In this document: piece after piece, positions 1,867 to 57,809 of the stretch
Layout of the letters: each line of letters opens with the position of its first letter
Position numbering within the stretch: the first letter of the stretch is position 1
Assembly (NCBI GenBank): GCA_029555965.1
Contig: JAKQHY010000096.1
Location: 1 to 57,809, forward strand
Source of the DNA: Chloroflexota bacterium
GTDB lineage: Bacteria; Chloroflexota; Anaerolineae; B4-G1; SLSP01
Direction of reading: 5' to 3'
DNA length: 57,809 nt
Notes under the pieces: model-generated
What the model was told of the DNA's origin: nothing
The model's input: the letters and a program-made list of their open reading frames with translations, nothing else
Databases searched by the model: none
Program-made: the position numbers and the translations under genes

Positions 1867-2048
1867 GAGTTAGGAGTGAGGAGTGAGGAAAGCCAGCATC
1901 GAGAATCGAGAATCATGAATCAAGAATCCAGCATCGAGCATCGAGCATCCAGCATCCAGCATCCAGCTTCCAGCATCCAGCATCCAGCATCCAGCATCCA
2001 GCTTCCAGCATCCAGCATCCAGCATCCAGCATCCAAAATCCAAAATCC
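1867..2048. repeat. ~180-bp array of 7-bp-periodic tandem repeats (gagtgag, aatcgag, catccag x~12, aaaatcc families)
   Basis: Phase is maintained over ~26 units. The array begins right after the OYE stop codon and is translated in-frame as ASSIQHP repeats in the ORF 1876..2799. Confidence 0.85.
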
Positions 2049-2851: not shown

Positions 2852-3488
2852 ATACCGGCATAATCGTCGCCGGATCGCTCGCCACAATCTCCGCCTCCAA
2901 CTGGCCCGCCGAAAGCTCGCGCAGCGCGTTCTGAAAGCCGGGCAGATGTTCCTCGGCAAAACGCGCCGTCAAGGTGACGTCCCCCGCAAAATCTTCTTCT
3001 AGGGTCTCGCCGTGATGCTCCGGGATCAACAGCCGCACCCGCTCAAACAGCGCGTAAGGCGCGGCCAGCATCACCGTGTGCGTGGGGACGCGCTCGGCCA
3101 GCGACAGCACGCGCAACACCGCCCGCACCGCGTCGCCATAAGCGCGCACCAGTCCCCCCGTGCCGAGCTTCGTCCCGCCGAAATAGCGCGTCACCACCAC
3201 CGCCACGTCGCCCAGATCGCTGCCCTTGAGGACGGCCAGCGCGGGCCGGCCCGCCGTGCCGGAAGGCTCGCCGTCATCGCTGCAATGCGCCGTCACGCTC
3301 GCGCCGTGCCCCACCAGGAACGCCGGCACGTTATGCGTCGCGTCGCCAAACTCCGCGCGGATGCGGGCGACAAAGGCTTTCGCTTCGTCCACACTGAACA
3401 CCGGCGCAATCGTCGCAATGAAGCGCGAATTGACGACCACGATCTCCACGCGGGTTTCGCGGGCAGGGATAAGATAACGGTCGCTCAT
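2847..3488 (-). CDS. yigZ: YigZ/IMPACT family protein (UPF0029)
   Basis: Full-length similarity to the YigZ/IMPACT fold (VVNSRF..., GDDGEPSGTAG, VVVTRYFGGTKLGTGGLVRAY). Confidence 0.85.
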   Translation of the reverse strand: MSDRYLIPARETRVEIVVVNSRFIATIAPVFSVDEAKAFVARIRAEFGDATHNVPAFLVGHGASVTAHCSDDGEPSGTAGRPALAVLKGSDLGDVAVVVTRYFGGTKLGTGGLVRAYGDAVRAVLRVLSLAERVPTHTVMLAAPYALFERVRLLIPEHHGETLEEDFAGDVTLTARFAEEHLPGFQNALRELSAGQLEAEIVASDPATIMPVS

Positions 3489-3826
3489 ATCTGAAGCTCA
3501 CTAACTTCTGCGCGCGCCTCCCGCCACCGCTCCGGGCCGGGGAACGACCGCAAGTACCCCATCAAGTCAAACTTCGGGCCGACAACCAGCCGCGCGGTGA
3601 ACGTCGTCTCATCCTGCGTGACCTCGCCCGCCAGCAGCACCTTCTTCTTGCGCGCCTTCTCCGGGATGTCGAAGACGTACCCGGCTCCAACCCGCCGTAG
3701 ATTCACCGGCACGTATGCCTCCTGCAAGAACTTCCGCAACTGCGCCCCCGCCTCCGGGAAATGCGCCGCCGGCAGCGTCAACCGCAACGTCATCTGCCCA
3801 AACACCCCCGGCTCAAACCCTTCCAT
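3485..3826 (-). CDS. Hypothetical small protein downstream of the radical SAM gene. It may be the DUF2344-like partner or fragment of a TIGR03960/TIGR03936 pair.
   Basis: ORF 3485..3880, with a likely start at the internal Met (MEGFEPG...). The upstream part of the ORF is translated from the G-rich tract. The genomic position matches the usual radical SAM / radical-SAM-linked pairing. Confidence 0.4.
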   Translation of the reverse strand: MEGFEPGVFGQMTLRLTLPAAHFPEAGAQLRKFLQEAYVPVNLRRVGAGYVFDIPEKARKKKVLLAGEVTQDETTFTARLVVGPKFDLMGYLRSFPGPERWREARAEVSELQI

Positions 3827-3838
3827 CCATCCCAAAAA

Positions 3839-3922
3839 CCTCACCCCCTCACCCACACTCCCACACCCCCCTACTCCCATACTCCCCCTCCCCCCCTCTC
3901 CCCCTCTCCCCCCCCTCCCACG
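3839..3922. repeat. C/T-rich (G-rich on the minus strand) homopolymeric tract with C-runs up to 8
   Basis: Seen directly in sequence. Encodes the Gly/Glu/Arg-rich tail of the radical SAM protein and separates it from the small downstream ORF. Confidence 0.8.
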
Positions 3923-6044: not shown

Positions 6045-6083
6045 CAAACCTTCGCGCCTTTGCGCCTTTGCGTGAAACTCATT

Positions 6084-6725
6084 TCACGGACTCACCGTGA
6101 GGTAAGGCGCGATTTGCTGGTAGGTGGCCGGGCCGATGCCAGGGACGTTCTGGATGTCCTCCACGCGCGCAAACGGCCCGTTGGCCTCCCGGTAGGCGAC
6201 GATGTCCTGCGCGCGACCGGGGCCGATGCCGGGCAGCGTCTCCAGGGCCGCCGCCGTCGCCGCGTTGAGATCGAGCGGCGCGGGCGTCGCCGCGGCGGAA
6301 GGCGCGGGCGTTTCCGCCGCCTGGCGCGGCACGACGAGCTGCTGATTGTCGTACAGCGGCGCCGCCAGATTAAGCGACTCCAGATCGGCGTCTTCCGCCG
6401 GGCCGCCCGCCGCTGCGAGCGCGTCTTCCACCAGGCTGTCGCCAGGGAGCGTCACCACCTGCGGTTCCAGCACCGCCCCGCTCACGTAGATGGTCACCGG
6501 CTGCGGCGTCACCGTGGGCGCGGGCGTCAGGGGCGCGACGGTGTTAGCAACCCGAATGACCGGCGCAGGCAACGCCAGGGTCGGCTCCTCCAAAGTGCGA
6601 AATCCCCAGTAGCCGATGGCCCCGCCGACGAGCAAGCTCACCAACGCCACCACAATCAGGCGCGGGCGGAAATATTTCGCAGCAGCGGGCGTAAGTTGGA
6701 ACTCGGAAGATTCAGTCCGACTCAT
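6084..6725 (-). CDS. comEA: ComEA family DNA-binding competence protein (SLBB domain + helix-hairpin-helix)
   Basis: N-terminal TM anchor, an SLBB-like segment (VTIYVSGAVLEPQVVTLPGDSLVEDALAAAGG), and a C-terminal HhH (LDLNAATAAALETLPGIGPGRAQDIVAYRE...F). The start is the ATG at 6725, preceded by a CAGGAG RBS. Confidence 0.85.
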   Translation of the reverse strand: MSRTESSEFQLTPAAAKYFRPRLIVVALVSLLVGGAIGYWGFRTLEEPTLALPAPVIRVANTVAPLTPAPTVTPQPVTIYVSGAVLEPQVVTLPGDSLVEDALAAAGGPAEDADLESLNLAAPLYDNQQLVVPRQAAETPAPSAAATPAPLDLNAATAAALETLPGIGPGRAQDIVAYREANGPFARVEDIQNVPGIGPATYQQIAPYLTVSP

Positions 6726-6804
6726 AAAATAACGCTCCTGAAAAAAGGAGAAAGTTTCACGCAAAGGCGCGAAGGCGCAAAGATTTTTAAGATTGGACTA
6801 AATT

Positions 6805-7875
6805 TTACGGCGTATCCGTTAAATCCGTTGAATCCGTTGAGCCTTTTCTCCCCCTCCGCTTGAAAAGCCGCCGGGGCGCCATCTTGCGCATCCGCTCGTA
6901 GAGCGCGCGCAAATCCGGGCCTTTGAGCGTGGCGCCGGCCTGGAAGTAGCGGTGCGCGGCCTGCCCGATGCCCCACGTGCTGATCGCCGCCATCGCCGCC
7001 GAGACAATCCAACCGGGGCCGGGGATGAACTTCGCCAGTTGCCCGGCCAGGTAGCGCGAAAGCAGGCTGCCGGCCATCGTCGTCAGCAGCTCGCGCGCGT
7101 GCGAGACGCTCATCGGTTGGCCGTAGGCGGCGGCGATCCGCAACACCATGCGCGTCTGCGAGGTCAGCAAGAAGGGCACGTCCAGGCCGGGGAACGGCTG
7201 TAGCCCGATCATGGCGTTAAGCCACGCCGTCCGCAGAATAATTTTGTGGACCAACTGCTGGCGGACGCCCGGCAGCGCGTGCGCCATCGCCACGGCGACC
7301 GCCGGCTGCGCGTCCAGGATGGCGGGCAGGAGCTTGTCCACCACGCCGCCGCCCGTCCGCGCTACCACCGGAACCGGGCGGACGCCCAGCAATTTCTCCG
7401 CATTTTCGAGAATCCAGGGCAAATCCTGCTTGACCAGGTCGGTCTTGTTCAGCGCCACCACCACCGGGACTTTCAGCGCCCGCAGCGATTGGTAGAGGTC
7501 GTGATCGCTCTGCCGCACGCCCGCCGCCGCGTCCAACAACAGCAGCACCAGATCGGCGCTCTGGGCCGCCTCCTGCGCGGTGTTGGCGCGATCCACGCCC
7601 CACACTTCCCCAAAGCCGGGCGTATCCACCAGGAGAAACGGCCCCAGCGGATGTTCCACCACACCCTTGGTCGTGCCGGGGACGGCGCTCACGGCGGAGA
7701 GCTTGCGGCTGTGGAGATAGTTGAACAGAGTGGACTTGCCGCTGTTCACCGGCCCCACAATCACGAGCCGGGATTGCAACTCCTGCGCCACTTCCTCTCC
7801 CTGGGCATGCCAGTCCAACGCTTGCAGCGCCTTTTGAATATCCTGTAACTTGCTGGGTAAAAGTAATAGCGACAC
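6805..7875 (-). CDS. GTPase with a small-GTPase G-domain and a DUF697-like membrane-associated C-terminal domain
   Basis: P-loop GPVNSGKST, DTPG, and NKTD motifs. GTG start with an AAGGAG RBS. The last ~10 codons (GSTDSTDLTDTP) are encoded by a ccgttga heptamer array. Confidence 0.75.
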   Translation of the reverse strand: MSLLLLPSKLQDIQKALQALDWHAQGEEVAQELQSRLVIVGPVNSGKSTLFNYLHSRKLSAVSAVPGTTKGVVEHPLGPFLLVDTPGFGEVWGVDRANTAQEAAQSADLVLLLLDAAAGVRQSDHDLYQSLRALKVPVVVALNKTDLVKQDLPWILENAEKLLGVRPVPVVARTGGGVVDKLLPAILDAQPAVAVAMAHALPGVRQQLVHKIILRTAWLNAMIGLQPFPGLDVPFLLTSQTRMVLRIAAAYGQPMSVSHARELLTTMAGSLLSRYLAGQLAKFIPGPGWIVSAAMAAISTWGIGQAAHRYFQAGATLKGPDLRALYERMRKMAPRRLFKRRGRKGSTDSTDLTDTP

Positions 7876-32478: not shown

Positions 32479-32651
32479 AGAATCTATCCGAAAATTCGTT
32501 TTGGCCCACGATTTGCGCCTAAAGGCGCGGTTTGAAGGGCATTTTTTCGTGGGCGGGCGTAGCCCGCCCAAAAAACACCTTCCTGAAAGCGGCTTTAGCC
32601 GCAAGACCCGGCGCAGCGGCGCAACGCCGCTATAATTTTCGGATAGGTTCT
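32479..32651. mobile_element. MITE-like repeat copy 1 (~173 bp, 18-bp terminal inverted repeats AGAAyCTATCCGAAAATT)
   Basis: Near-identical (~90%) reverse-complement copy at 43281..43456. Internal hairpins (GGGCGGGC-tac-GCCCGCCC, GCGGCGTTGCGCCGC, GCGCCTTTAGGCGC). It has no coding capacity. Confidence 0.75.
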
Positions 32652-43036: not shown

Positions 43037-43110
43037 TGGGCGGCACAGGACTTGAACCTGTGACCTCCTGCGTGTAAAGCAGGCGCTCTGACCAACTGAG
43101 CTAGCCGCCC
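43037..43110 (-). tRNA. tRNA-Val (anticodon TAC)
   Basis: Folds manually into a cloverleaf: acceptor GGGCGGC/GCCGCCC, D-stem GCTC/GAGC, anticodon stem CCTGC/GCAGG with loop TTTACAC, T-stem ACAGG/CCTGT with loop TTCAAGT, discriminator A. No encoded CCA. Confidence 0.85.
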
Positions 43111-43280
43111 GAACAGGAGACATTATACCACAGGCAAAGCTTGCCGCAAATAAGTATAATCAATGAGGAAATTCTCCGTTGAATCCATTCAATTCAATGG
43201 GATTTACGCAAAGAAATGGGACGCCAATGATGAAAATCTTTCAACACAAAGGGCACAGAGGGTCTTCTCTATGCACACTA

Positions 43281-43456
43281 AGAACCTATCCGAAAATTAT
43301 AGCGGCGTTGCGCCGCTGTGCCGGGTTTTGCAGCTAAAGCCGCTTTCAGGAAGGTATTTTTTCGTGGGCGGGCTACGCCCGCCCACGAAAAAATACCCTT
43401 CGAACCGCGCCTTTAGGCGCAAATCGTGGGCCAAAACGAATTTTCGGATAGATTCT
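43281..43456. mobile_element. MITE-like repeat copy 2 (reverse-complement of copy 1)
   Basis: Same terminal inverted repeats (TIRs) and internal hairpins as 32479..32651. Lies ~170 bp from the tRNA-Val and 38 bp upstream of the next gene. Two spurious ORFs overlap it. Confidence 0.75.
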
Positions 43457-43493
43457 AAGTGCTTTGTGAGTATATACAGATTAAGGAGATAGG

Positions 43494-44537
43494 ATGAATC
43501 TGCAATCAAACAAAACTATCACCCCCCTCCCCTGCGCGGAGGTTATCAAAGCCGTCGAACGCCGCACCCCCTCACGCATCCCCCTGGTGCGCGCCAAATG
43601 GTGGGGCGAGGGTCTCTGGGAACAATACGGCGAACGGCTCAACGCCTTCGACCGTTACCCGGAAGACGTGGTGCAGTTGTGGATCGAACCGCTGGATTAC
43701 GACCAGATGGGTCTTTCGTGGGAGATCGATCACGAGGGGGCGCACGACGCACGCATTGTGCTGGACGACTGGGGCAAGCTGGACGAGTTCATCGCCAAGC
43801 TGCCCGATCCGGCGACCGATCCGCAGATTGCGTCCCTGGCGGAACAAGCGGAGCAAGCCCATGCACAGGATCGCTACGTCCTGTTCTCGTTCTGGCGGTT
43901 GTTCTTCGAGCGCCCGTGGAGCATCAGAGGCATGACGAATCTGCTTATGGACTACTACACTGCACCCGCCGAAATCCACCGCCTGCACGACGCCCTCTGT
44001 ACCCTGTACTGCGGCTACATCGAACAGGCCATCCGCGTGCTGAAACCCCACGGCTTCTGGACGAGCGACGACCTGGGCCACCAGAAACAGCCCTTCATGC
44101 GCCCGCGTACCTTCCGCGAGTACCTCAAACCCTATTACGTCCGCATCGGCGAGACGCTGCGCCGCCACAACCTGCACTGGTGGTTGCACTCCTGCGGGAA
44201 CAATACGCCCCTGCTGCCCGATTTGATCGAGGCGGGTGTGGATGTGTTCCACCCCGTGCAGAAGCACACGATGGACGAGGTCGCCGTTGCCCGCGAGTTT
44301 GGCGACCGGCTCACATTCCTGGCGGGTATTGACGTGCAGCACGTCCTTCAGGAGCAGTCGCCCGACGCGGTGCGCGCCGAAGTCCGCTTCCTCATAGATA
44401 CCTTCGACCGCCCTGACGGCGGAATGTGCCTCGCCGCCGGCAACGGCATCGTGGCGGGGACGCCCTTTGAAAACATCGAGGCGTTTTTGGATGAAGCAGC
44501 GCGCTATGGGACGGCGCACCGGCAGCAATTTGCGTAA
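43494..44537 (+). CDS. Uroporphyrinogen decarboxylase (URO-D) family protein (MtaA/CmuA-like methyltransferase-type)
   Basis: URO-D TIM-barrel family similarity over the full length. AAGGAG RBS 5 nt upstream. Confidence 0.6.
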   Translation: MNLQSNKTITPLPCAEVIKAVERRTPSRIPLVRAKWWGEGLWEQYGERLNAFDRYPEDVVQLWIEPLDYDQMGLSWEIDHEGAHDARIVLDDWGKLDEFIAKLPDPATDPQIASLAEQAEQAHAQDRYVLFSFWRLFFERPWSIRGMTNLLMDYYTAPAEIHRLHDALCTLYCGYIEQAIRVLKPHGFWTSDDLGHQKQPFMRPRTFREYLKPYYVRIGETLRRHNLHWWLHSCGNNTPLLPDLIEAGVDVFHPVQKHTMDEVAVAREFGDRLTFLAGIDVQHVLQEQSPDAVRAEVRFLIDTFDRPDGGMCLAAGNGIVAGTPFENIEAFLDEAARYGTAHRQQFA

Positions 44538-44572
44538 TTTTAAGAGACTATCCGAGCACAGGAAAATTTGAT

Positions 44573-44866
44573 ATGAAAACAACAGTCTCGTACGATCCAG
44601 AAAGAGTATTAGCGACAGAAGAAAGCAAACTAAAAAGCAAATTGAGGGACAAACAAAGCCTTAAAGAATACGCAGTAGCTATACTGATCGCTATTGCGTA
44701 CTATGTCATTGCCAGCTTCTTTGGAGAGGATTCTTCAGTTACAGGAGCAATAACTTGGATGATGCTATGGATATTGCTTTGTCAGATAACTGATTTAGAA
44801 CGCAAAAATGCTGCACTAGAAAGGAAGCTCAACGAATTGGAAAAAAGCCTGGAGTGCGAACACTAA
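44573..44866 (+). CDS. ORFan small membrane / coiled-coil protein in an AT-rich island
   Basis: AGGAAA RBS, one TM segment, and a C-terminal coiled-coil. Local GC is far below the genome average. The 3' end overlaps the convergent gene by 38 bp. Confidence 0.45.
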   Translation: MKTTVSYDPERVLATEESKLKSKLRDKQSLKEYAVAILIAIAYYVIASFFGEDSSVTGAITWMMLWILLCQITDLERKNAALERKLNELEKSLECEH

Positions 44867-47519
44867 ACACCTCCGGTAAAATCACGTAGCCATCCTCCAC
44901 CCCGGTCGCCGGGAGCCGCTCTCCTGTTTCCGGGCGATACCAACCCACGGCAAGGCGATAATCGCCTGCCGGGAGATTCCACAGGCGCAGCGTCGCAGTG
45001 TCGTGGATGCGCTGCCCGGCTTGCCAACCGCTCGTGGGACACGCCCAGGCGCACGGGATGGCGTCGTATTGCCCAACTAACGCACCATCGGCATCCAACA
45101 AGTGGACGAACAGCTTGTAATCAGCGCCGGGCGCGCGCAGGACATCCCATTCCAGGGCAAGCTCCAGCAACGCGCCTTCCGTGCGCCAGTGGTAGCCCGC
45201 CAGCGCGATGGTATCGGCAAACATCACGCCACCAGATATGGGCCGAGTATAGCGCGCGCCGTCCGCCGCAACGAACCAATGCTCCGGCGGACGATAGGAC
45301 GCTCCCGCACAAGTGAAGCTCCATTGATAATCGCCCGGCGGAGCGTCCACCCGCACACTAAGTTCCCGCACCGCCAGGTCGCCGGCCTTGAGTGAAAAGC
45401 CCCCCCACTCCACGGCGGCGGTGTACACCGGCGAAGCCGCTTCTCCTGCCAGCGCCAACGTGCAAACTGGTAATACCGGCAGATCGCGCCAAACCCGCGC
45501 TACAATCTGAAAGCGCCACACGCCATCGGCATCAGGCTGAACATCGAAGCGGATTAGCGACAGGTCGTTGGAAAGAATCATAGGGAAGCCATCGTAGGTC
45601 ACGGTCAGCGGCGCGGTGAGGTCGTAGACGGCCAACGTCTCATCCTCGTAGACGGGCGCGAGCGGCAGGATGCGCCGGAAGTGAGCGTCCGCCGCCGCGT
45701 CCATAGTGGGCTTGTGGACGAGGACGTAGCGCACGCCGAGGTCGGCCAGTTCCCGGATCGCCGCGCCCACATCCTCCGGCGGGATGGCTTGTGCGGCGAT
45801 GGCGTCGCCGGGCAGCAGGAGCGGCTTCCCCTTGAGGTTGCTCTGATACAACGCACGGATCAGCGAATTGGACGTGATCAGCGTGTACAATTCCGGCGTG
45901 TAGCGCGAAACGTGCCCTTCCACCGTCGGCCTGCCGTGCAACGTCTGGTAATACAGCCACAACTTGGCCTCGTTGTACCCCATCGGGTAATCCAGCACCG
46001 CGTACTCCTCCCCATCCGCCGCCATCTGTGCGTAGAAGGGAGAAGCCGGCAGCAACTCCCAGCGCGGCAGCGGCAGGCAGAGGTATTCCGCCAGCAGCAG
46101 CAGGCCGAGAGGCAGCAACGCCCAGCGCCGCCGCAGCCGCGCCGCGCCATACCCCGCCAGCGCCGCCAACGAAAACACCGTCAGCGCGTTCAGCCGGTCG
46201 GGCGAGCGCAGCGTGGAGAAAGGGAATATGTCCGCGAGCCAACGGTAAGGCAAGCGGATCAGCGGATAAAGCGTCCCGTTCACCCGCAGCGCACTTCCGG
46301 CAGACAACAACAGCCACAAGAGCAAGGTGAGCAGCCAGAAAACCCATTCGTCAACGGATTTAACGGATTCAACGGATTTTTTCCGTCTCCATCCGCTCAA
46401 TCCGTTGAATCCGTTGAGAAAAATTGCCAGGAAAAGGACCCCATATCCCAGGTATGGCATGTACGCCCGGTTGGCGATGAATCGCTCGTAAATCGGCTGA
46501 ACCTGATCGCCCCACAGTGGGTGATATGTGGGCGGCACCAGGTAGGCCAGCAGATCAGTCTGGTGGCTCACGCCTTCGTTGAAGCCCTCCGTCCAACCGC
46601 TTTTCCAGGCGCGGGCAATGGGGATGAGCAGCGGCGCGCTCAACAGCCCGGCGACCGCCGCCACCACCAGCAGTCGCTTGCCCAGCTCCATCCAGCGGGA
46701 AAGCGCGCGCGGCGAACGCACCAGCAGCCATCCTACGTACCCCACCGTCCACAGCGCCAGCATCACGGCGAGTTGCAGCCCGGTCCACAACGTGAGCGCG
46801 GCGAAGATGCCGGCAGCTAAAGCATATCCATTCTTTCTCAACGGATTGAACGAATTGAAACGGATTTTCCGTTTGTCAGAATCTATACCGTTCTCTGAAT
46901 CGTTTTTTCTGTCAGCAGATTGAGCAGATTGAGCGGATTTTGGACTTAATCTGCTTAATCTGCTGACAAAATTTAACTTCAAAGACGCAGGCTGATAAAT
47001 CTGAAGCGCGCGGCGCAGCATCAAGGCATACCAGGGCCACCACTGAATGAAGCCGAGGTGCGCGTGGGAAAGCGCCTGGGTGAGGTGGTACGGCGCGAAG
47101 GTGAACACGAAGCCCGCGACGAGCGCGCCCGCCGAGTTGCGCGTCAGATCGTAGGTCAGCCAGAACATCCCCCCCGCGCCGATCCACAACCCGGCGAGCC
47201 ACACAAGGTTGGACGCCGCCACCGGCCCGACCACCGGCCGCAAGGGCAGCGCCAACAGCGAACTGAGGAACGAGTTGGAGTGCGCAACCAGGCTCGCGCC
47301 CTGGGGGAAAAAGGCATAAGGGGTAAACAGCACCGGCTGGCCCGTGGTGAGCGCCTTCGCCAGCCACCAATCGTTCCAATAGAAAATCCAGTTGTCCACG
47401 TTGTTGCCGATAAGATGGGTGGACAACGTCAGCGGCGCGGGCAAGGTCATCCATCCGACCAACAGGCCAAAGAACAAGCCCACCGCGCCCCATCGCTGCC
47501 AGTTCTGTCGCGTCTTCAT
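44829..47519 (-). CDS. Large polytopic membrane protein, GT-C/YfhO-like putative glycosyltransferase with a ~350-aa C-terminal extracytoplasmic domain
   Basis: Many TM helices N-terminally, then a soluble C-terminal domain. Two in-frame heptamer-repeat insertions, at 46350..46418 and 46838..46968. Confidence 0.65.
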   Translation of the reverse strand: MKTRQNWQRWGAVGLFFGLLVGWMTLPAPLTLSTHLIGNNVDNWIFYWNDWWLAKALTTGQPVLFTPYAFFPQGASLVAHSNSFLSSLLALPLRPVVGPVAASNLVWLAGLWIGAGGMFWLTYDLTRNSAGALVAGFVFTFAPYHLTQALSHAHLGFIQWWPWYALMLRRALQIYQPASLKLNFVSRLSRLSPKSAQSAQSADRKNDSENGIDSDKRKIRFNSFNPLRKNGYALAAGIFAALTLWTGLQLAVMLALWTVGYVGWLLVRSPRALSRWMELGKRLLVVAAVAGLLSAPLLIPIARAWKSGWTEGFNEGVSHQTDLLAYLVPPTYHPLWGDQVQPIYERFIANRAYMPYLGYGVLFLAIFLNGFNGLSGWRRKKSVESVKSVDEWVFWLLTLLLWLLLSAGSALRVNGTLYPLIRLPYRWLADIFPFSTLRSPDRLNALTVFSLAALAGYGAARLRRRWALLPLGLLLLAEYLCLPLPRWELLPASPFYAQMAADGEEYAVLDYPMGYNEAKLWLYYQTLHGRPTVEGHVSRYTPELYTLITSNSLIRALYQSNLKGKPLLLPGDAIAAQAIPPEDVGAAIRELADLGVRYVLVHKPTMDAAADAHFRRILPLAPVYEDETLAVYDLTAPLTVTYDGFPMILSNDLSLIRFDVQPDADGVWRFQIVARVWRDLPVLPVCTLALAGEAASPVYTAAVEWGGFSLKAGDLAVRELSVRVDAPPGDYQWSFTCAGASYRPPEHWFVAADGARYTRPISGGVMFADTIALAGYHWRTEGALLELALEWDVLRAPGADYKLFVHLLDADGALVGQYDAIPCAWACPTSGWQAGQRIHDTATLRLWNLPAGDYRLAVGWYRPETGERLPATGVEDGYVILPEVFSVRTPGFFPIR

Positions 47520-47670
47520 CGCGGCGCATTATCGCATGGGTGAAGCCGGGAGTCAACTTGTCATTCATAGCGCTCTTGGGTATAGTACGTAAAACATAAA
47601 ACGTGAAGCTTTCACAGTAAAATCATCACGTTTCACGTGTCACGTTTCAGAAATCCCTTTCAGGAAAACT

Positions 47671-49128
47671 ATGATGCGCTTACGCAAATTTGGCTGGCTG
47701 CTCTTGCTCATCGCGGCGGGCGTCGCCTACTGGCTTCTCCCCATTCGCGGGCAGGTGATCATCACGCCGGGGGAAGTGGCGGACTGGCCCTGGCCGCGCC
47801 TCCGTCTGGAGCCGACCACGCCGCAGCCCGGCGACCGGGTGGAGGTGATGCTCACCGACGTGACGCCGTGGACTTTCGTGACGCTAACGGTGGACGGCGT
47901 CCCGGCACAGGCGCAGGGACAGGCCGTCCGCAGCGGCGTTGTCTGGACGTGGCGCTGGACATATACCGCGCCCGCCGCGCCCGCCGAGGTGATCTTCTAT
48001 CACGATTGTCACACCGGCTGCGTGGAGCGAGGCCGCTTCCCGCTGGGCGATCCGACGCCATCCCCCCGCCCGGCAACCACGCCGACGAAGCTTGGCCTAG
48101 TGATGCCCAGTCTCACCCGCGATTGGCACGGGCGCAGCGGCTGGGCCGTCGAAATCACCTACGCCCGCCGCGCCGAGGAGCCGTATTGGGGCGTGGACGA
48201 TCTGGCGGCGCGGATTACGGCGCATCACGCCCAGGGATTGCGCGTCCTCGTGCGCGTGGATTATGACCAGGAACAAAGCCTTCCGCCGACGGGCGACTAC
48301 GTCGCCCTGACCGAGTACCTGGAATACCTGCGCCGCCTGTCGCGCGACGCGCGCCTGCGCGAAGTCTACGGCTACGTGCTGGGCGCCGATTACAACACGG
48401 CGGAGGCAAACGGGTTGGCGGCAGGAAGGCCGGTCACGCCGGAGTGGTACGCCCGCCTCTGCAACGGCTATGGCGAGGACGTCAGCCACAGCGACAACGC
48501 CGTGCAAATCGTGCGGGCCGAAAATCCGCGTGTCCGCGTCATCGTCGGCCCGTTGCAGCCGTGGAGCGCCGATCAGGATGGTGCGCTGCCCTACACCATC
48601 AACCAGCCCTGGCTCAACGCCATGAACACCCTCGTCGCGCGGCTGGACGAAACCGCGCGCGCCAAAGCCGCTGCCGGCATCCCGCTGTCCGCGCCGGATG
48701 GCTTCGACGTGCAGGCGCCGGGCGCGCCGGATGCGCCGGAGATGGCGGGCACGCTCCGGGCCGACGAGCCGTCCGCCGAACTGCGCCGCGCGGTGTGGGG
48801 CGGCGCGCGGGCGGGCTTCGGCGTCTACCGGGACTGGCTGGACATCATCAACGCCTATCCGAGCACGCGCGGGCTGCCGGTCTACATCATCTCCACCAAC
48901 ACCTACGACCGCGCGGCGGGTATTCCGCCGGCGCAAAATTACCCCAAAGGCTGGCTCACCACCGCGCTGGACGTGGTCAACACCGAGCCGCAGATCGCGG
49001 CGCTGTGTTGGTTCCTCGACAATTTCCCGCACGGCGACCAGTGGGATTGGTTCAGCCTGACGCAGCGCCCCGGCCGGCTGGTGGACGCGGCGGAAGAGTT
49101 AGAGGCGTTGTTGCGGGGAGAAAATTAA
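47671..49128 (+). CDS. Secreted/membrane-anchored hypothetical protein with a TIM-barrel glycoside-hydrolase-like domain
   Basis: N-terminal signal/anchor and a Pro-rich linker. The domain shows alternating beta/alpha elements with conserved acidic residues. AGGAAA RBS. Confidence 0.45.
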   Translation: MMRLRKFGWLLLLIAAGVAYWLLPIRGQVIITPGEVADWPWPRLRLEPTTPQPGDRVEVMLTDVTPWTFVTLTVDGVPAQAQGQAVRSGVVWTWRWTYTAPAAPAEVIFYHDCHTGCVERGRFPLGDPTPSPRPATTPTKLGLVMPSLTRDWHGRSGWAVEITYARRAEEPYWGVDDLAARITAHHAQGLRVLVRVDYDQEQSLPPTGDYVALTEYLEYLRRLSRDARLREVYGYVLGADYNTAEANGLAAGRPVTPEWYARLCNGYGEDVSHSDNAVQIVRAENPRVRVIVGPLQPWSADQDGALPYTINQPWLNAMNTLVARLDETARAKAAAGIPLSAPDGFDVQAPGAPDAPEMAGTLRADEPSAELRRAVWGGARAGFGVYRDWLDIINAYPSTRGLPVYIISTNTYDRAAGIPPAQNYPKGWLTTALDVVNTEPQIAALCWFLDNFPHGDQWDWFSLTQRPGRLVDAAEELEALLRGEN

Positions 49129-49179
49129 CGCAAAGACGCAAAGACGCAGAGTAAGGAATTATTCTTTGCGTCTTTGCGT
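49129..49179. terminator. Inverted-repeat hairpin (CGCAAAGACGCAAAGACGCAGAG ... CTTTGCGTCTTTGCG) between convergent genes
   Basis: Built from gcaaaga heptamer units. Followed by TTAATTTTC on the minus strand, so it is a plausible terminator for the activase gene. Confidence 0.5.
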
Positions 49180-49207
49180 TGAAAAACGAGCTAGAAATGC
49201 AAAAGTA

Positions 49208-50137
49208 TCAACCACTCTTCACGGCAATGCCGTAACCCACCGCCAATGCCACAAAGGCCGCCATTTCGTCCTTGGTGGGCGTGGGCAGGTCTTTGGCTTT
49301 GTAATCCAGGCCCAGACTGCGGTACTTGTCGCCAGCGAGGCGGTGGAAGGGGAGCAGCTCGAGGCGCGGCGGGGGCGCAGGGCTGCCACTCTGCGCGCGC
49401 AGTTCCGCAAGATCGCGGATGTACGCTGCAATCGCGCCGATCTCCTCCGGCGTGGCGTTCACGGTCGGCACGACGGGGGTACGGAACACCACCGGCTTAT
49501 TCGTCGCCATCAGCCGCCGGTGATTGTCGAGGATGCGCTCGTTGGGAACGCCGGTGATAGCGCGGTGCTTTTCCGAATCCATGTGCTTGATGTCGGTCAT
49601 CACGAAGTCGGTCACTTCGAGCAGTTTTTCCAGCCACTCCCAGGCGTAGTTGGCGTCGGTTTCGATGACGGTGTGGACGCCCCCAGCTTTGCTGCGCGCC
49701 AGGATTGCGTAGGAAAAGTCCAGTTGCAGCGCGGGTTCGCCGCCGGAGAGGGTCACGCCGCCGCCGGACGTGGCGTAGAAGGGGCGGTCGGCCAGGACTT
49801 CGGCCAACACATCGTCCACACTCATCGTTTTGCCGGTGAAGACGAGCGCCTCGGCATAGCACGTCTCCGCGCACTTGCCGCAGGCCACGCACTTGTCGCG
49901 GTCGTACACTTTCGCACCGTCCACCATCCCATGCGCGCCCTGCGGACACACGCCCAGGCACGCCCCACAGCCGATGCACTTGGATGGAAACACCTGGATT
50001 TCCGGTTTGGGCGACCAGGTCTCCGGGTTGTGACACCAGAAACAGCGCAGATTGCAGCCCTTAAGAAAGACGGTCGTGCGGATGCCAGGGCCGTCGTGGA
50101 GGGAAAACCGTTGGATGTTCGTGACAATACCTTGCAT
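49208..50137 (-). CDS. Glycyl-radical enzyme activating protein (PflA/NrdG-like radical SAM with an extra 2x[4Fe-4S] ferredoxin insert)
   Basis: A CNLRCFWCHNPE radical-SAM cluster and two CxxCxxCxxxCP ferredoxin motifs. No glycyl-radical enzyme gene is adjacent. Confidence 0.8.
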   Translation of the reverse strand: MQGIVTNIQRFSLHDGPGIRTTVFLKGCNLRCFWCHNPETWSPKPEIQVFPSKCIGCGACLGVCPQGAHGMVDGAKVYDRDKCVACGKCAETCYAEALVFTGKTMSVDDVLAEVLADRPFYATSGGGVTLSGGEPALQLDFSYAILARSKAGGVHTVIETDANYAWEWLEKLLEVTDFVMTDIKHMDSEKHRAITGVPNERILDNHRRLMATNKPVVFRTPVVPTVNATPEEIGAIAAYIRDLAELRAQSGSPAPPPRLELLPFHRLAGDKYRSLGLDYKAKDLPTPTKDEMAAFVALAVGYGIAVKSG

Positions 50138-51042: not shown

Positions 51043-51251
51043 AAGCAAAGGCGCAAAACGTAGATTCATCACAATGTTACTCGGCAAGATTGGCGTAATC
51101 CACGAGCATCTTTCAGGGACACGGGTTGGACGGGCTGAACGGCTCACACAGATAATTTTTAGGATTTAATCCGTGTTCATCCGTCTGATCCGTTCAATCC
51201 GTGTGCAAAATTCAGATTGTGGCTCAGCCGCCTTCTGGCCCACGCTTTGCG

Positions 51252-52807: not shown

Positions 52808-53560
52808 ATGGACATCATCACAGAACTGTTACAAGCCATTGCGCCCAACGCAGCGCGGGCGAAGCCGGTAGATGTGCGCATTGGCGCGCATTGGAGCATC
52901 ACAACCTTTGAAGTGGATAAACGGCTGCGGGCGGGGTTGTCTTCGACGTTGGGCGGCGGAGATGACCATCATCATGGCGGCGGATGGCCGGTGCGCGACG
53001 CCGGGCGGCTGCTGGATGCGGATGCGGCGACACTGGCCGCGCTGGCCCGCTCAGACAGCACGCAGGAGGCAAGCGTGGGCTTCGCCGCGATCAACGCGCT
53101 GCTGGATGTGGACGAGGCTGCCTGCGAAGAGCTTAACGCCGCCGACCTCCTCGCCGAGCAGGGCGCCGGGCGCAAAGTGGCGGTGGTTGGGCACTTTCCC
53201 TTCATCCCACACCTGCGCGAGATCGCCGAGACGCTGTGGGTACTGGAATTGCATCCGCGCGCGGGCGATCTGCCGGCCGACTGCGCCGCCGAGGTGCTGC
53301 CGCAGGCCGATGTGGTCGCGCTCACCGGTACGTCGCTGCTCAACCACACATTTGACGCCCTGATCGCGCTGTGCCGCCCGGACGCTTACGTGGTGATGCT
53401 CGGTGGGACGACGCCGCTTTCGCCGGTACTCTTCGACGCCGGCGTGAACGTCATTGCAGGAACACTCGTCGTAGATCCTGGTTTGGCCGTTCTCGCCGTG
53501 AGCCAGGGCGCCACGTTCAAACAGATTCCGGGGAAGCGGTTGGTGGTGCTCAGAAGTTAG
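52808..53560 (+). CDS. DUF364/DUF4213 domain protein (Rossmann-like, putative metal-chelation family)
   Basis: Family-level architecture similarity. AAAGGA RBS. Confidence 0.5.
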   Translation: MDIITELLQAIAPNAARAKPVDVRIGAHWSITTFEVDKRLRAGLSSTLGGGDDHHHGGGWPVRDAGRLLDADAATLAALARSDSTQEASVGFAAINALLDVDEAACEELNAADLLAEQGAGRKVAVVGHFPFIPHLREIAETLWVLELHPRAGDLPADCAAEVLPQADVVALTGTSLLNHTFDALIALCRPDAYVVMLGGTTPLSPVLFDAGVNVIAGTLVVDPGLAVLAVSQGATFKQIPGKRLVVLRS

Positions 53561-53640
53561 GAGTGAGGAGTGAGGAGTGAGGAGCAAGACAACTCGCAAC
53601 TCCTAACTCCTAACTCCCAACTCGCAACTCCTCACTCGTG
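53556..53640. terminator. Inverted heptamer-repeat hairpin (gagtgag x3 ... ctcctaa/ctcgcaa arms) between convergent genes
   Basis: Starts at the TAG stop of the DUF364 gene and ends at the pcm stop. The arms are imperfect reverse complements. Confidence 0.5.
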
Positions 53641-54243
53641 AATAAACGGCACAAACGCGACGCCGCCCATGTCTACACGCTCGATGCGGTCGCCGTGTTT
53701 GATGAATTTCCACAGGGTTTGATAGCCATGCGGCGGGCCGACGGGGATGACGAGCCGGCCGCCTTCGGCCAGTTGCGCCCACAGGGGTTCGGGGACTTCG
53801 GCAGGGGCCGCTGTGACGAGGATGCCGTCGTAAGGCGCGAACTCCGACCAGCCGACGTAGCCATCATCGAGTTTGCAGTGGACAGTGTAACCAAGCGCGT
53901 CCAGTCGCGCCCGCGCCGCCTCATAGAGCGCGGGGATGCGCTCCACCGTGTATACATCCAGCCCCATGGCGGCGAGAAGGGCGGCCTGATAGCCGGAGCC
54001 GGTGCCCAGCTCCAGCACGCGCTCGCCAGATTTGAGCGACAGAGCTTCCGTCATCAGCGCCACGATGTAGGGCTGCGAGATCGTCTGCCCATACCCGATG
54101 GGTAGCGGGTAGTCGCCATAAGCATCGCAGCGATGCGTCTCCGGCACGAAGGCATCGCGAGGAACCCGGGTGAGCGCGTCCAATACAAGCGTGTCGCGCA
54201 CGCCCCGTCGGCGGATGAGTGCGACCATTTCCTCATGCGACAT
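53632..54243 (-). CDS. pcm: Protein-L-isoaspartate O-methyltransferase
   Basis: SAM motif VLELGTGSGYQAALLA and the PIMT core. ATG at 54243 with an AAGAGGAG RBS. Confidence 0.85.
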   Translation of the reverse strand: MSHEEMVALIRRRGVRDTLVLDALTRVPRDAFVPETHRCDAYGDYPLPIGYGQTISQPYIVALMTEALSLKSGERVLELGTGSGYQAALLAAMGLDVYTVERIPALYEAARARLDALGYTVHCKLDDGYVGWSEFAPYDGILVTAAPAEVPEPLWAQLAEGGRLVIPVGPPHGYQTLWKFIKHGDRIERVDMGGVAFVPFIHE

Positions 54244-54397
54244 AGCGGCTCCTCTTATCGCCCGTTGTAGCAAAGTGATGAAACGTGAGGGGTGAGGATT
54301 TCAGGCAGGGATACTCTCATTATAACTCAGGTTTACGCCCTTATGACACATTTGAACCAGGATTTATGCAAATCCACTCCACAGTTACCCCTGGATG

Positions 54398-56362
54398 CTA
54401 GGGCTTACATAGAGTCTCTTCGCATAAGCGCAAATGCCCCACCGCATCGGTGAAGTCCCACCCTTGACTGAGAAGTGTCACCCCGATTTGATCGTAGCCT
54501 GCGCTCACTGCCGCCTCGGGGACGGCGACGCAATAGCGATTCAGGTATTCCGGCTGCAAGGGCGCGGGCGGAATTGACTGTTGGGCGATAAGGTCACTTC
54601 CCTCGTAGTAGAAGAGAGCAACGGCATCGGTATGATACAGGCTCACCTCAACGTAAGGAGCGTGCTGTGCGCCTGGCAGCGCAATCAACAGGCCGCCGGC
54701 GTTGAGGGTGAAGACTTCGTCCCACTGAACGGCGCCCTCTTTTATCGCGCTCATCTCTTGCAATGGCAGCCGCGAGGCATAATAGCTGTAAAACGCTTTG
54801 TCAATCAGGCGCTCGTACTGCCCGGTGTTCATCTTCCAAATCGCCTCCCAACGCCCCGGCGCAAACAGGCTCCCGCGCGTGATCAGCGTCAGTTGGTCGT
54901 AAAACCGCGCCAGGTTCGGGTCGGCGATGAGGGCTTCGCCCCGTTCCAGGGATGCCAGGTAGCCTTCCGGGAAAACCCGGCGGAAGTGCCCGATGCGCCA
55001 GGGCTGTTTGACGACGGGCAGCCGCGCCAAAAGCGGATCGGCCAGGGCGTTGTCATCCACAATGTGAACGCTAGGGCCGGCGTAGAAGCCGATAAAGCCG
55101 ATGGCGCCGCGCGAAAAGACGCGGGGGCCGTCGGTGCGGCGGTTGCGCCCTTCAACGGCCCAGGGGTGATTGGGCATCTGCACGTCACGCGCCAGGGTGA
55201 GCAGGCTGGTGGCCTGGTAATACACGCCGCGCTCGTCGCCGACGCCCTGATTGCCCGCGAAAGCGTCGCCGGAGAGACCGTAAGCGCCGTCGCTGATCAG
55301 GGTGGGGAAGGGGGACAGCAACCCCACCAGGAAAATGAGGGCGAAGGGCAGGTATTTAACCGAGAGGTTTTCCATAAACTCGCTTTGCCCCAGCAAGATG
55401 ACGGCGAAGAACAGCGGGGCGGTGAGAAAGCGCCCGCTCATAAAATCGCCGCCGACCCACACCACGTAGGCAACGTACAGGAGGATGCCCAGCGCCGCGA
55501 TCCAATCGCGCGTGACGCGCCGCTTAACCGTCGCCAGCAGCGCAAACGCTATGCCGGTCAGGGTCAGCGGATCCCAGTTGAGCGAGTTGAGCAGGTAGAT
55601 GAGGCCCTGCTTGATCAACTCATCGTGGGGGATTCCCGTGTTGAGCTTGGCGTAGTAGGTGTTGGGCAAAGCGAAGCCGTAGTAGACGATGGAAAAGGCT
55701 TCCCACAGCACGAGGGGCAAAAACCCTGCGCCCAGGGCCAGCCAGCCGCGCCAACTCTTGGTTTTCAACCCGGCATAGATCAGCGCGGGTGCAAAAATCA
55801 GCAACAGGTCCAGGCGAGTCAACATGCCCAATGCCGCGAAAAGCGCCAGCTTGCTCAAAGTTTTCGGGTCAAAGGTTTCCGCGCGAAGGTAGACCCACAG
55901 GAACAGCGCGATGAGGAGGTGCGTCAACGGGTTTTCCAGTCCCGACGTGGAATAATCCACGAAAGCCTTCGACAGCAGCAACAACGAGCCGCCCAGCAGC
56001 AGCGTCCAGGGCGAGCGCGCCGTTTTTGCCGCCCACAGCAGGGCGGCGCACGAGACGCCGATGGAGACGATGTGCAGCGTGAAAAAGGCCTCGCGGGTGA
56101 AGAAATAGAAAAATGCCAGGACGAACATCCACAATGGATGCGTGTACGCCTGCACCCGCTCGTTGACGTTCCAGGTCAGCCCGTAGCCGTGGACGAAATT
56201 GTCCACCGTGCGGAGCGTGATGTAAGCGTCATCGCACAACCAGGCGGTTCTGACCAGCAGCGCGACCCACACCACCAGCAACAACCACGCGACCAGGGTT
56301 TGAGAACGTCTGGCCGACTTCTGCCCCTCGGCACAGTTTGTCATGGGTTCACCTTCAAACAT
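54398..56362 (-). CDS. Large GT-C-type membrane glycosyltransferase-like protein (arabinofuranosyl/mannosyl-transferase-like)
   Basis: ~11 TM helices N-terminally with a conserved DDAYI-type loop motif (LCDDAYITLR), and a soluble C-terminal domain. Alternative start at 56344. Confidence 0.55.
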   Translation of the reverse strand: MFEGEPMTNCAEGQKSARRSQTLVAWLLLVVWVALLVRTAWLCDDAYITLRTVDNFVHGYGLTWNVNERVQAYTHPLWMFVLAFFYFFTREAFFTLHIVSIGVSCAALLWAAKTARSPWTLLLGGSLLLLSKAFVDYSTSGLENPLTHLLIALFLWVYLRAETFDPKTLSKLALFAALGMLTRLDLLLIFAPALIYAGLKTKSWRGWLALGAGFLPLVLWEAFSIVYYGFALPNTYYAKLNTGIPHDELIKQGLIYLLNSLNWDPLTLTGIAFALLATVKRRVTRDWIAALGILLYVAYVVWVGGDFMSGRFLTAPLFFAVILLGQSEFMENLSVKYLPFALIFLVGLLSPFPTLISDGAYGLSGDAFAGNQGVGDERGVYYQATSLLTLARDVQMPNHPWAVEGRNRRTDGPRVFSRGAIGFIGFYAGPSVHIVDDNALADPLLARLPVVKQPWRIGHFRRVFPEGYLASLERGEALIADPNLARFYDQLTLITRGSLFAPGRWEAIWKMNTGQYERLIDKAFYSYYASRLPLQEMSAIKEGAVQWDEVFTLNAGGLLIALPGAQHAPYVEVSLYHTDAVALFYYEGSDLIAQQSIPPAPLQPEYLNRYCVAVPEAAVSAGYDQIGVTLLSQGWDFTDAVGHLRLCEETLCKP

Positions 56363-56614
56363 AGTCTGATAGTCGTTAGTCAGATAGTCTGATAGCCATA
56401 GGACTTACGCAAGGATGGCGCTTTTGCACCGCAAAGCACGCTGAGGCCGCTGAGACCCTATAAAAATCTCTGCGTGCTCTGCGTCCTCTGCGGTAAATTC
56501 TCGCTCGTTTGCGTGAGTCTTTCTCTCCCACATGTAAATTTTATTACGGGCAGTTCAGGGGTCAAGAACGGGGGGCGTTTTATGTTCTGCCCCGTGCGAT
56601 AGTCCCGGTTGCTC

Positions 56615-56643
56615 TTGTCCCTTCGCCGTTATAAAGGTATAAT
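56615..56643 (+). promoter_or_regulatory. Candidate promoter TTGTCC-17-TATAAT
   Basis: Seen in sequence, ~45 nt upstream of the ACT-domain gene. Confidence 0.45.
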
Positions 56644-56687
56644 GAATTCAGTTCGTCCATTGGCAGATTTTCTGACCGGGTGCGCCG

Positions 56688-57125
56688 TTGAACCTTCCAT
56701 TGCCACTCACTCAAATCATTGCGCAGACACACCTGTTCACCGATGCGGTGGACTATATCATGGTGCGCATTCCGGCAGAATCGGCGGCGCAGGTGTTGGC
56801 GGCCTGGGGGACGGAGGCGGGGATGGCGGCGTTGGTTCGGGATAAGGACGAAACGTCGCTGCTGGTGGCGCAGTCGGTGTGGGAGCACAGCCCATTGGCT
56901 CGTAAAGCGTGGCCTGTCTCACCAATTTACCGCTTGATCACGCTGGATACCCCGCTGGATTTCAGCGTCGTCGGTTATCTGGCCGCGTGGACGGCCGTGC
57001 TGGCCGAAGCGGGTATCAGTATCCTGGCCCTCTCAACTTTTTCCAGGGATCATCTTTTCGTCCCGGCGGGAGATTTCGACCGGGCCTGGGCCTTGTTAAC
57101 AGACCTTATCCAATCCTATGCCTAA
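56688..57125 (+). CDS. ACT domain protein (ACT_7-like)
   Basis: Two-lobed ACT-like pattern (LISV/ITLDTP...GISILALSTFSRDHLFV). TTG start, or the internal ATG at ~56760. Confidence 0.5.
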   Translation: MNLPLPLTQIIAQTHLFTDAVDYIMVRIPAESAAQVLAAWGTEAGMAALVRDKDETSLLVAQSVWEHSPLARKAWPVSPIYRLITLDTPLDFSVVGYLAAWTAVLAEAGISILALSTFSRDHLFVPAGDFDRAWALLTDLIQSYA

Positions 57126-57192
57126 CGACCGGTTTCCGGTTACTCATTTCTCATTACCCTTTACTTTGTCAATCTGACAGGTGGAGCGTGCG

Positions 57193-57809
57193 TTGAGCAG
57201 CGTAAACTTTCTTCTCGGCAAAACACTGGGGAAATATCAGGTACTAGAGCATGTCGGACACGGCGGCATGGCCGAGGTGTACAAAGGCCAGCACGTCCAA
57301 CTGGATCGCATGGTGGCCGTCAAAGTGCTGCACCCCTTTCTGGCGGATGAGGAAGGCTTCGTCGTGCGCTTCCAGCGGGAGGCCCGCATCGTCGCCACCC
57401 TGCGCCATCCCAACATCGTCCAGGTCTACGACTTCGATTACAACGACGAACTCAACATCTACTACATGGTGATGGAGTTCATTGACGGGCCGACCCTCAA
57501 AAACATCCTGACCGAGGGCCTGTTGCCGCAAGAGGACGTCATGCGCTTTGGCGCGGCGATTGCCGACGCGATGGCCTATGCCCACAAGCGCGGCATGGTT
57601 CACCGCGATATTAAACCCGCCAACATTATGTTCACCGGCGATCACCAGCCGGTGCTCACCGATTTCGGCATTGCAAAGATGTTGACTCTCTCCGGTCTGA
57701 CCGCCAGCGGCGCAATGGTGGGGACGCCGGCCTACATGGCCCCCGAAGTCGGGATGGGAAAACCCGGCACAGCCAGCACCGACATCTACTCACTGGGCGT
57801 AGTCCTGTA
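57193..57809 (+). CDS. Serine/threonine protein kinase (3'-partial, runs off the window)
   Basis: Gly-loop LGKTLGKYQVLEHVGHGGMAEVYKG, VAVK, HRDIKPAN, DFG, and APE motifs. Probable TTG start at 57193 with GGTGGAG upstream. Absent from the ORF track because it has no stop. Confidence 0.85.
   Translation, partial: MSSVNFLLGKTLGKYQVLEHVGHGGMAEVYKGQHVQLDRMVAVKVLHPFLADEEGFVVRFQREARIVATLRHPNIVQVYDFDYNDELNIYYMVMEFIDGPTLKNILTEGLLPQEDVMRFGAAIADAMAYAHKRGMVHRDIKPANIMFTGDHQPVLTDFGIAKMLTLSGLTASGAMVGTPAYMAPEVGMGKPGTASTDIYSLGVVL

Follow-up and report, generated by a model that had tools for sequence, protein, structure and literature searches.

Palindromic repeats lie in frame inside protein-coding genes of a 57,809-nt stretch of Chloroflexota DNA (the complete contig JAKQHY010000096.1 of assembly GCA_029555965.1, class Anaerolineae; hereafter the window), where they are predicted to add lineage-specific peptides to loops. 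This reading is supported by orthologue alignments and by a structure model. The blocks inside a gene for an 896-aa membrane protein, an insert in a radical SAM gene and the tail of a GTPase gene are very likely copies of one dispersed family of tandem-repeat hairpins. The hairpin elements are 57-72 nt long (about 60-70 nt), with arms of two to four tandem nonamers and a short A/T loop, and they form two related subfamilies with the units CAACGGATT and CAGCAGATT. The units are dispersed, the insertions are present or absent at orthologous sites, the reading frame is retained, and the insertions are located in loops.

Nonamer hairpins inside the membrane protein gene

The 896-aa gene lies at 44829-47519 on the minus strand and encodes a polytopic, glycosyltransferase-like membrane protein with a GT-C fold in a reading frame without a stop codon. 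Its homologues (n = 181) are typically 830-860 aa long. A Pfam search of the protein gave no match. A Foldseek search of the structure model against the PDB returned AglB, DPY19, ArnT and AftA, which are GT-C-fold membrane glycosyltransferases, as the best matches, and this supports the label given to the gene in the preliminary description made from the sequence alone. The protein was aligned first with 17 homologues and later with 79, and the open reading frame (ORF) retains all family-invariant residues.

The preliminary description had placed two blocks of heptamer repeats in this gene. Its coordinates and translations of the blocks were confirmed, and there is no stop codon in the 896-aa frame. 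However, the repeat unit inside the window genes is 9 nt, as Tandem Repeats Finder (TRF) reported a period of 9 with three copies on each side at 46351-46417; the heptamer and octamer arrays of the window are intergenic or at gene edges. The block at 46350-46418 was real, whereas the one at 46838-46968 was not single and comprises two elements: that at 46838-46900 is older and decayed, and that at 46907-46971 is younger. All three elements are in frame within the intact gene. The GC content drops to 0.38-0.46 in the repeat blocks, and the rest of the gene is mostly at 0.6-0.7.

Hairpin A (46351-46417, minus strand) has the unit CAACGGATT and encodes LNGFNGLSGWRRKKSVESVKSVD. Its arms at 46351-46377 and 46391-46417 are 27 nt each, are 89% complementary and enclose a 13-nt loop, so that the plus strand reads TCAACGGAT-TTAACGGAT-TCAACGGAT, the loop, and then ATCCGCTCA-ATCCGTTGA-ATCCGTTGA. 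As RNA (46345-46423), its predicted folding energy was -38.6 kcal/mol (z = -7.6). Hairpin B (46838-46900, minus strand), which encodes DSENGIDSDKRKIRFNSFNPL, belongs to the same nonamer family as A and is older, with one arm decayed. In the window it consists of one good arm (TCAACGGATTGAACGAATTGAAACGGA) and a degraded partner, and it no longer folds better than shuffled sequences (z = 0.12).

Hairpin C (46907-46971; unit CAGCAGATT) is held by a private block of 96 nt, or 32 codons, at 46902-46997 on the minus strand, which encodes YQPASLKLNFVSRLSRLSPKSAQSAQSADRKN. The arms at 46907-46933 and 46945-46971 are 27 nt long and 89% complementary with an 11-nt loop, and the unit appears on them as AGCAGATTG / CTTAATCTG. 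As RNA (46903-46975), the predicted energy was -34.6 kcal/mol (z = -9.8).

The frame in which an element is read determines its peptide. TCAACGGAT reads STD, QRI or NGF, and its complement ATCCGTTGA reads SVE, PLN or IR-stop, with TGA in one of the three frames; the combinations seen were NGF..SVE, STD..PLN and QRI..SVE. The absence of stops had been attributed to the orientation of the repeats. Because each hairpin holds both orientations of the unit, the reading frame and not the orientation avoids the stops.

Orthologues show what was added. About 55 window residues (YQPASLKLNFVSRLSRLSPKSAQSAQSADRKNDSENGIDSDKRKIRFNSFNPLRKNG) stand against a 5-residue linker, RGRKR, in orthologues at 57% identity or less, and the two closest relatives (79% and 65% identity) have the distal half only, as SSTDLTDSNGKIRFNLFNPLRK and LSTDRTDSTRKRTRFNPLNPRS. 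Hairpin B is missing from the orthologues at 57% identity or less; its counterpart in the 79% relative (L001) is the clean hairpin TCAACGGATTTAACGGATTCTAACGGGAAAATCCGTTTTAATCTGTTCAATCCGTTGA, and it is also found in the 65% relative (L003). The 96-nt block with hairpin C is missing from L001, and the two contigs are collinear over 43483-50137 with 83-88% DNA identity outside this private block. From these alignments, hairpin B is read as an old insertion common to the relatives and the hairpin C block as a younger one private to the window.

Hairpin A occurs at the orthologous site in L001 and L003 and not in the relatives at 57%. Its left arm consists of 4 units in the window, 3 in L001 and 2 in L003, and its right arm of 3 units in each of these genomes. 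Since the arms differ by whole 9-nt units, the reading frame is kept. A symmetric copy-number change on both arms was rejected, as a recount showed that the left arm alone differs. The L003 copies are decayed at the DNA level while the loop length remains.

An AlphaFold2 model of the 896-aa protein, built from an 80-sequence alignment, reached a mean predicted local distance difference test score (pLDDT) of 90.5 and a predicted template modelling score (pTM) of 0.89. Internal pLDDT values below 50 were confined to the insert blocks, at residues 194-220, 222-224 and 380-383; the five C-terminal residues (892-896) were below 50 as well. The 10-residue blocks over 171-230 and 371-390 averaged 47-69, with 54-57 at 371-390, the region of hairpin A. 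Both insert regions were modelled as coil between long helices, from helix 179-190 to helix 226-246 and from helix 359-374 to helix 391-406. Orthologue alignment and structure prediction, which the preliminary description had proposed as checks, thus both agreed with its view of inserted loop segments.

Other host genes and dispersed copies

The radical SAM insert (5358-5387, minus strand; window bases TCCGTTGAATCCGTTCAATCCGTTGAATCT) is 30 nt long, equal to 3.3 units of ATCCGTTSA, and reads SVESVQSVES. Exactly these 10 residues are absent from 15 orthologues (59-72% identity), which leaves a clean gap in the alignment, and the site in the DNA reads CAA CAG|GTA and CAA CAA|GTG in L156 and L157. 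The gene is not otherwise well formed, in contrast to the preliminary description. It is split into ORF 3849-6047 (732 aa) and ORF 3485-3880 (131 aa), the two together corresponding to a single orthologue of about 840 aa. The change of frame falls within a G-run tract at 3839-3919 (G8, G5, G7, G5, G6 and further runs) encoding a Gly/Glu-rich variable linker; it is about 1.5 kb away from the nonamer insert and has no connection with it. An assembly error, a slippage-prone tract, a real frameshift or a pseudogene could account for the break.

The GTPase gene ends in a tail array at 6805-6840 (minus strand), in which a single-arm nonamer array (6814-6840) supplies the last codons STDSTDLTD, followed by TP and the stop codon. 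Its end is repeat-encoded, as had been proposed. Orthologues have variable unrelated tails after the conserved ...APRRLF, and cluster members at 90% identity or more have the tail variants STDLTDLTDTPSSADGASSTVLPR and ESTDAMDGMS. A scan of the window genes for low-GC islands, which could be further decayed inserts, found nothing beyond the three genes already known.

The (ASSIQHP)n stretch at the beginning of ORF 1876-2799 had been listed as another coding insertion, and this is doubtful. The arrays at 1860-2048 (plus strand) are heptamers, namely AGGAGTG, ATCGAGA, ATCCAGC (about 15 copies) and ATCCAAA (TRF). In an exhaustive HMMER search, homologues aligned from query residues 54-59 with their own residues 4-15, and an in-frame TTG lies at L59; because of this, the stretch probably belongs to the 5' leader and is open by chance. 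Heptamer units with Shine-Dalgarno-like (AGGAGTG) or anti-Shine-Dalgarno-like (AACTCCT, CTCCTGC) sequence adjoin start codons at window positions 1865-1889 and 53555-53637 and upstream of the radical SAM gene in L156, and they may affect translation initiation.

The units recur well beyond these genes. The 16-nt motif AACGGATTNAACGGAT, with up to 2 mismatches, had 13 matches at 6 loci in the window, compared to 0.08 expected from shuffles. A pattern scan of species-representative genomes returned at least 110 loci, at least 19 of them in R24_97, a metagenome-assembled genome (MAG) of Anaerolineae. Both nonamer units and the octamer ACGCAAAG recur in R24_97, CTOTU19884 and L001, and several heptamers are shared with R24_97. 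Most R24_97 copies are hairpins of 55-58 nt, CAACGGATTnAACGGATTnAACGGA-loop-TCCGTTnAATCCGTTnAATCCGTTG, with semi-palindromic A/T-rich flanks. They form recognisable subfamilies in which odd arm variants are common to several loci; the variant TCCGTTAAATTCCGTTACATCCGTTGA is found in L009, with close variants in L032, L040 and L043. The CAGCAGATT hairpin at 46907-46971 has six related loci in R24_97. The same units in unrelated genes and in intergenic DNA indicate a dispersed repeat family and not local slippage.

Nonamer copies also lie inside R24_97 genes. They were found in the carB linker (STDLTDLTD), at three sites of the Lhr helicase gene, in a PMT_2-like membrane protein gene (ISRLSRFSRLDLKSAQSAESAD) and in a HAD hydrolase gene (SVQSVQSVE). 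In carA (L005:3313-4701), two in-frame composite insertions are made of heptamer and octamer arrays without hairpins, (GCAAGAG)8 with (ATCCTGC)6 and (TCAGCGGA)4 with (CCCTACT)4; one separates the CPSase domain from the GATase domain, and the second is within the GATase domain. The expected Pfam domains were confirmed in each of these hosts (carA, carB, Lhr, PMT_2-like and HAD). A rule that only units with a period of 3n survive in genes holds in the window and was rejected by the in-frame arrays of R24_97 carA (QEARGKK x3, PASCILH x2). Therefore, the 9-nt period is not obligatory, and it is the total added length that must be a multiple of three.

Among the matches listed, AACGGATTN arrays occur in Chloroflexota, Binatia, Bacteroidales, Microcoleus, Zixibacteria and Ignavibacteria, with same-unit hairpins in Binatia and Bacteroidales and direct arrays in Microcoleus. 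Homology of the unit across phyla is not claimed: in viral contigs, two permuted control nonamers had 9 and 18 matches against 14 for the real unit. Since permuted nonamers are about as frequent as the real one, unit identity alone is weak evidence of relatedness. A Bacteroidaceae MAG (L073) has a 116-nt composite element with outer arms of AACGGATTN nonamers and an inner second tandem array (GATTCGTGN). Its six copies within 8 kb mean that tandem-repeat hairpins exist, and were amplified, outside Chloroflexota.

Between genes, tandem-unit hairpins were found in four of the eight convergent gaps of the window, a position usual for terminators or REP-like hairpins, and an ordinary GC-rich hairpin in one gap. 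An octamer hairpin (ACGCAAAG) at 49127-49180 begins at a stop codon and has 18-nt perfect arms (-30.1 kcal/mol, z = -7.0); in its place, L001 has a GC-rich hairpin of the ordinary kind. A heptamer hairpin (TAAAACG / ACGTTTY) at 2785-2855 overlaps both stop codons and has 17-nt perfect arms (-23.1 kcal/mol, z = -5.3). Another heptamer hairpin (AGGAGTG / AACTCCT) lies at 53555-53637 (-35 kcal/mol, z = -3.8). A nonamer hairpin at 51121-51215 (ACGGGYTGR / ATCCGTNNN), with motif matches at 51179-51203, is related to the CAACGGATT family. These four convergent-gap copies, like other intergenic ones, would act as terminators or as 3'-end hairpins similar to repetitive extragenic palindromic (REP) sequences. 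In a divergent gap, the heptamer hairpin at 47587-47649 (ACGTRAA / TCACGTT) was compared with L001: the window has ACGTGAA/TCACGTT and L001 has ACGTCAA/TTGACGT, a change of the unit on both arms, and the copy number is about 3 in the window and 4.5-5 in L001. This fits homogenisation with pairing maintained, or replacement by another copy. The sample suggests that tandem-unit hairpins and their heptamer and octamer relatives lie mostly at gene boundaries in this Anaerolineae lineage.

Several further repeats were observed in the window. The octamer arrays CCTTTGCG and CGCAAAGG (6049-6072, 6760-6804) flank a ComEA-like gene (6084-6764) in inverted orientation. In relatives (L010:403-525; L001:12621-12760), a conserved core of about 75 nt (..AAAGATTTTTAAGATTGGACnAAATTTTATA..) lies between the same octamer arrays, and part of this core is present at window 6783-6804; the arrays and the core suggest a longer composite element. 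An AT-rich (GC 0.38) 97-aa ORF (44573-44866) with no Pfam match occupies the convergent gene gap at 44538-44828, and the syntenic region of L001 has nested heptamer and octamer hairpins instead of it. A REP-like repeat of another kind, with a perfect 21-bp stem (GGTATTTTTTCGTGGGCGGGC tac GCCCGCCCACGAAAAAATACC), lies at 43353-43397, and a related copy (GGGCATTTTTTCGTGGGCGGGCGTAGCCCGCCCAAAAAACACC) at about 32540-32580 in another intergenic region. A tRNA gene occupies 43037-43110 (minus strand), and about 65 nt from it lies a short degenerate nonamer array (43175-43198). An Rfam search of the window returned the tRNA only, with no known RNA family matched to the hairpins.

Origin and fate of the inserts

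The observations are best explained by occasional arrival of a copy in coding DNA. Such a copy would survive only under three conditions: it lengthens the gene by a net multiple of three, it is read in one of the two stop-free frame combinations (STD, NGF or QRI on one arm and SVE or PLN on the other), and the site is tolerant, that is, a loop, linker or tail. Slippage would then alter an arm by whole 9-nt units with the frame preserved, and point mutation would wear the hairpin down while the polar peptide stays as a disordered loop. Selection would act only as a filter, and the insert peptides would have no function of their own.

A quite improbable alternative is that each array arose in place by slippage and quasi-palindrome template switching, with no copying between loci. 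The arm of hairpin A does shift by single units at an orthologous site, and host sequence resembles the unit at two sites, with GCC AAC GGA just upstream of the radical SAM insertion in orthologues and, in L004, GCATTTTTCCGT at the loop site. An established mutational route is the conversion of imperfect palindromes by template switching (cited in PMC4060949). Local origin does not account for the identical units and arm variants in unrelated genes and at many intergenic sites of several genomes, nor for the private 96-nt block, which has no precursor in L001. The inserts might instead be retained for a function, as flexible polar linkers or as mRNA hairpins that make ribosomes pause while the protein enters the membrane or a domain folds. 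We consider this unlikely, even though lineages with 65-79% protein identity have kept inserts A and B, the RNA hairpins are highly stable and the inserts separate transmembrane helices or domains. The window copy of hairpin B no longer folds, the L003 copies are decayed with the loop length persisting, the peptide varies with the frame used, and most orthologues function without inserts.

It is hardly credible that the repeats are assembly errors or that the host genes are no longer functional. This suspicion could be raised by the metagenomic assembly of the contig and by the frame break in its radical SAM gene. However, the same inserts were recovered in independent JGI, NCBI and ENA assemblies (L001, L002 and L003), and the identical 896-aa protein is present on three contigs and agrees in full with a protein of an NCBI MAG. 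The GTPase protein occurs in JGI contigs and an NCBI MAG, identical except for a V/M call of the GTG start codon, and two near-identical members of its 90% cluster have the same tail. The 896-aa ORF also keeps its family-invariant residues and folds with high confidence.

Several points weigh against arrival of dispersed copies as the explanation. At the site of insert A, orthologues at 57-65% identity have a loop of similar length, unrelated in those at 57%, this loop varies in length across the protein family, and no clean empty site is demonstrable. A scan of 48 window ORFs, which left out the last four called ORFs (53632-57807), detected no transposase or REP-associated tyrosine transposase (RAYT). 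Pfam hits in the other ORFs were FtsK, a XerC/D-type recombinase, S1, IF-1, PrmA, DnaJ/GrpE/HrcA and Lon, so that the scanned ORFs consist of ordinary chromosomal housekeeping genes and one Xer-type recombinase. No target-site duplication was detected at 40 element boundaries, at the window-private block or at the radical SAM insert. The R24_97 loci were selected by motif search and give no unbiased frequency, and the gene calls used rest on a crude criterion of GC content at third codon positions (GC3).

The microhomology at the two sites offers no more than a hint of template switching. A more speculative extension, which we regard as possible and rather doubtful, is that the elements form an undescribed self-copying class, guided by hairpins or microhomology through template switching without a transposase and with homogenised arms. 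Such a class would be frequent enough in some Anaerolineae to be a main source of new disordered loops, even in essential enzymes such as those of carA and carB, and the hairpins of like build and unit in Binatia and Bacteroidales would reflect horizontal spread or repeated birth.

If the pattern of the window extends to the whole genome, such a segment would be present in about 6% of genes (three of 50 called genes in this unselected window), and these Anaerolineae would add a second example, independent and phylogenetically distant, of proteins remodelled by palindromic repeats. The relative R24_97 has such segments even in carA, carB and the Lhr helicase gene. The 9-nt building block means that an insert can lengthen or shorten after insertion without a frame break. 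The elements thereby provide a natural system for the study of selfish or structural DNA repeats turning into protein loops. In practice, protein lengths are inflated, open repeat frames give false N-terminal extensions such as that of ORF 1876, and orthologous linkers appear unrelated.

Comparison with known repeat systems

The preliminary description compared the blocks with Rickettsia palindromic elements (RPEs) and suggested that they would be a notable mode of protein innovation outside Rickettsia. The parallel stands in that palindromic insertions in frame add peptide, and fails in size, build and host. The novelty was overstated: in-frame fusions of ERIC, BOX, YPAL and cyanobacterial transposable elements of the miniature inverted-repeat type (MITEs) with host ORFs have already been reviewed (PMC3184786, PMC10969869).

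RPEs are about 100-150 bp long, and each family has a consensus ORF (Ogata et al. 2000, summarised in PMC10969869). The likeness is broad: both are dispersed palindromic repeats found between and within genes, with several families per genome, in-gene copies in frame, peptide added where the protein fold allows and no clear transposition signature. Here too, the host gene is undisrupted by the added peptide. In contrast, the present hairpins are 57-72 nt (about 60-70 nt), the peptide depends on the frame and is not conserved for the family, and the arms are tandem 9-nt units of variable number. The host is a member of Chloroflexota with a free-living type of gene content, and most copies, as the sample suggests, are intergenic. 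The elements are therefore not RPEs, being set apart by size, build and host, and their behaviour matches that of RPEs.

REP, BIME and REPIN sequences (PMC3733652, PMC3116915) are likewise short hairpin repeats at gene ends and in convergent gaps, often as inverted doublets, in high copy number and with subfamilies within one genome. The GTAG/CGTC at one end of a 20-40 bp palindrome is not found here; the elements end in (C/T)CTCAACGG...CCGTTGAG(G/A) and TGTCAGCAG...CTGCTGACA. Their arms are internally periodic, unlike those of REPs, and REPs are extragenic by definition, whereas the present hairpins also lie in frame inside genes. No RAYT (Y1 transposase) was present in the scanned window ORFs, nor did the precomputed Pfam domains of homologues of the radical SAM protein and the GTPase include one, data that comprise one 57.8-kb contig and scattered 8-kb loci. 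The terminal inverted repeats of MITEs are present trivially, the whole element being an inverted repeat, and the target-site duplication of MITEs is absent.

Dispersed long-unit repeats include the short tandemly repeated repetitive (STRR) heptamers of cyanobacteria, GGGAATC in Xanthomonas and Nostoc, and TAACTGA in Beggiatoaceae (PMC4692102, PMC4679880). These long simple sequence repeats (LSSRs) share with the present elements one 7-9-nt unit in 2-20 tandem copies at many mostly intergenic loci near start or stop codons, a variable copy number and occasional copies within ORFs (PMC4692102, PMC4679880). Head-to-tail units of 5-11 nt that vary in number between relatives are also seen here. 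STRR-type arrays are described as direct, with one inverted case among 170 sets reported by MacGregor (PMC4692102, PMC4679880). In contrast, two arrays in inverted orientation typically pair into a hairpin here, next to single arms (6814-6840, 5358-5387), and in-frame internal insertions in conserved enzymes are common.

The tandem repeats within Borg genes also have units divisible by three and encode low-complexity disordered peptides that evolve fast (PMC9879509). According to the abstract of that paper, they arise independently at each locus; they are described there as tandem direct repeats and not as hairpins or as units shared between loci. ERIC, BOX, YPAL and MITE sequences (Delihas 2007/2011, PMC3184786) are small open-frame repeats inside genes or extending their 5' or 3' ends, as here. 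They differ in their length of about 100-300 bp, their unique internal sequence and, in some, target-site duplications, and none is described as built from tandem units. Searches of the literature found no account of tandem-unit hairpins in general, nor one of such elements from Anaerolineae, and a search with the unit sequence itself returned KASP primer tails. The feature is real; in-frame insertion of small repeats was known before, and the tandem-unit build of these hairpins differs from the known systems.

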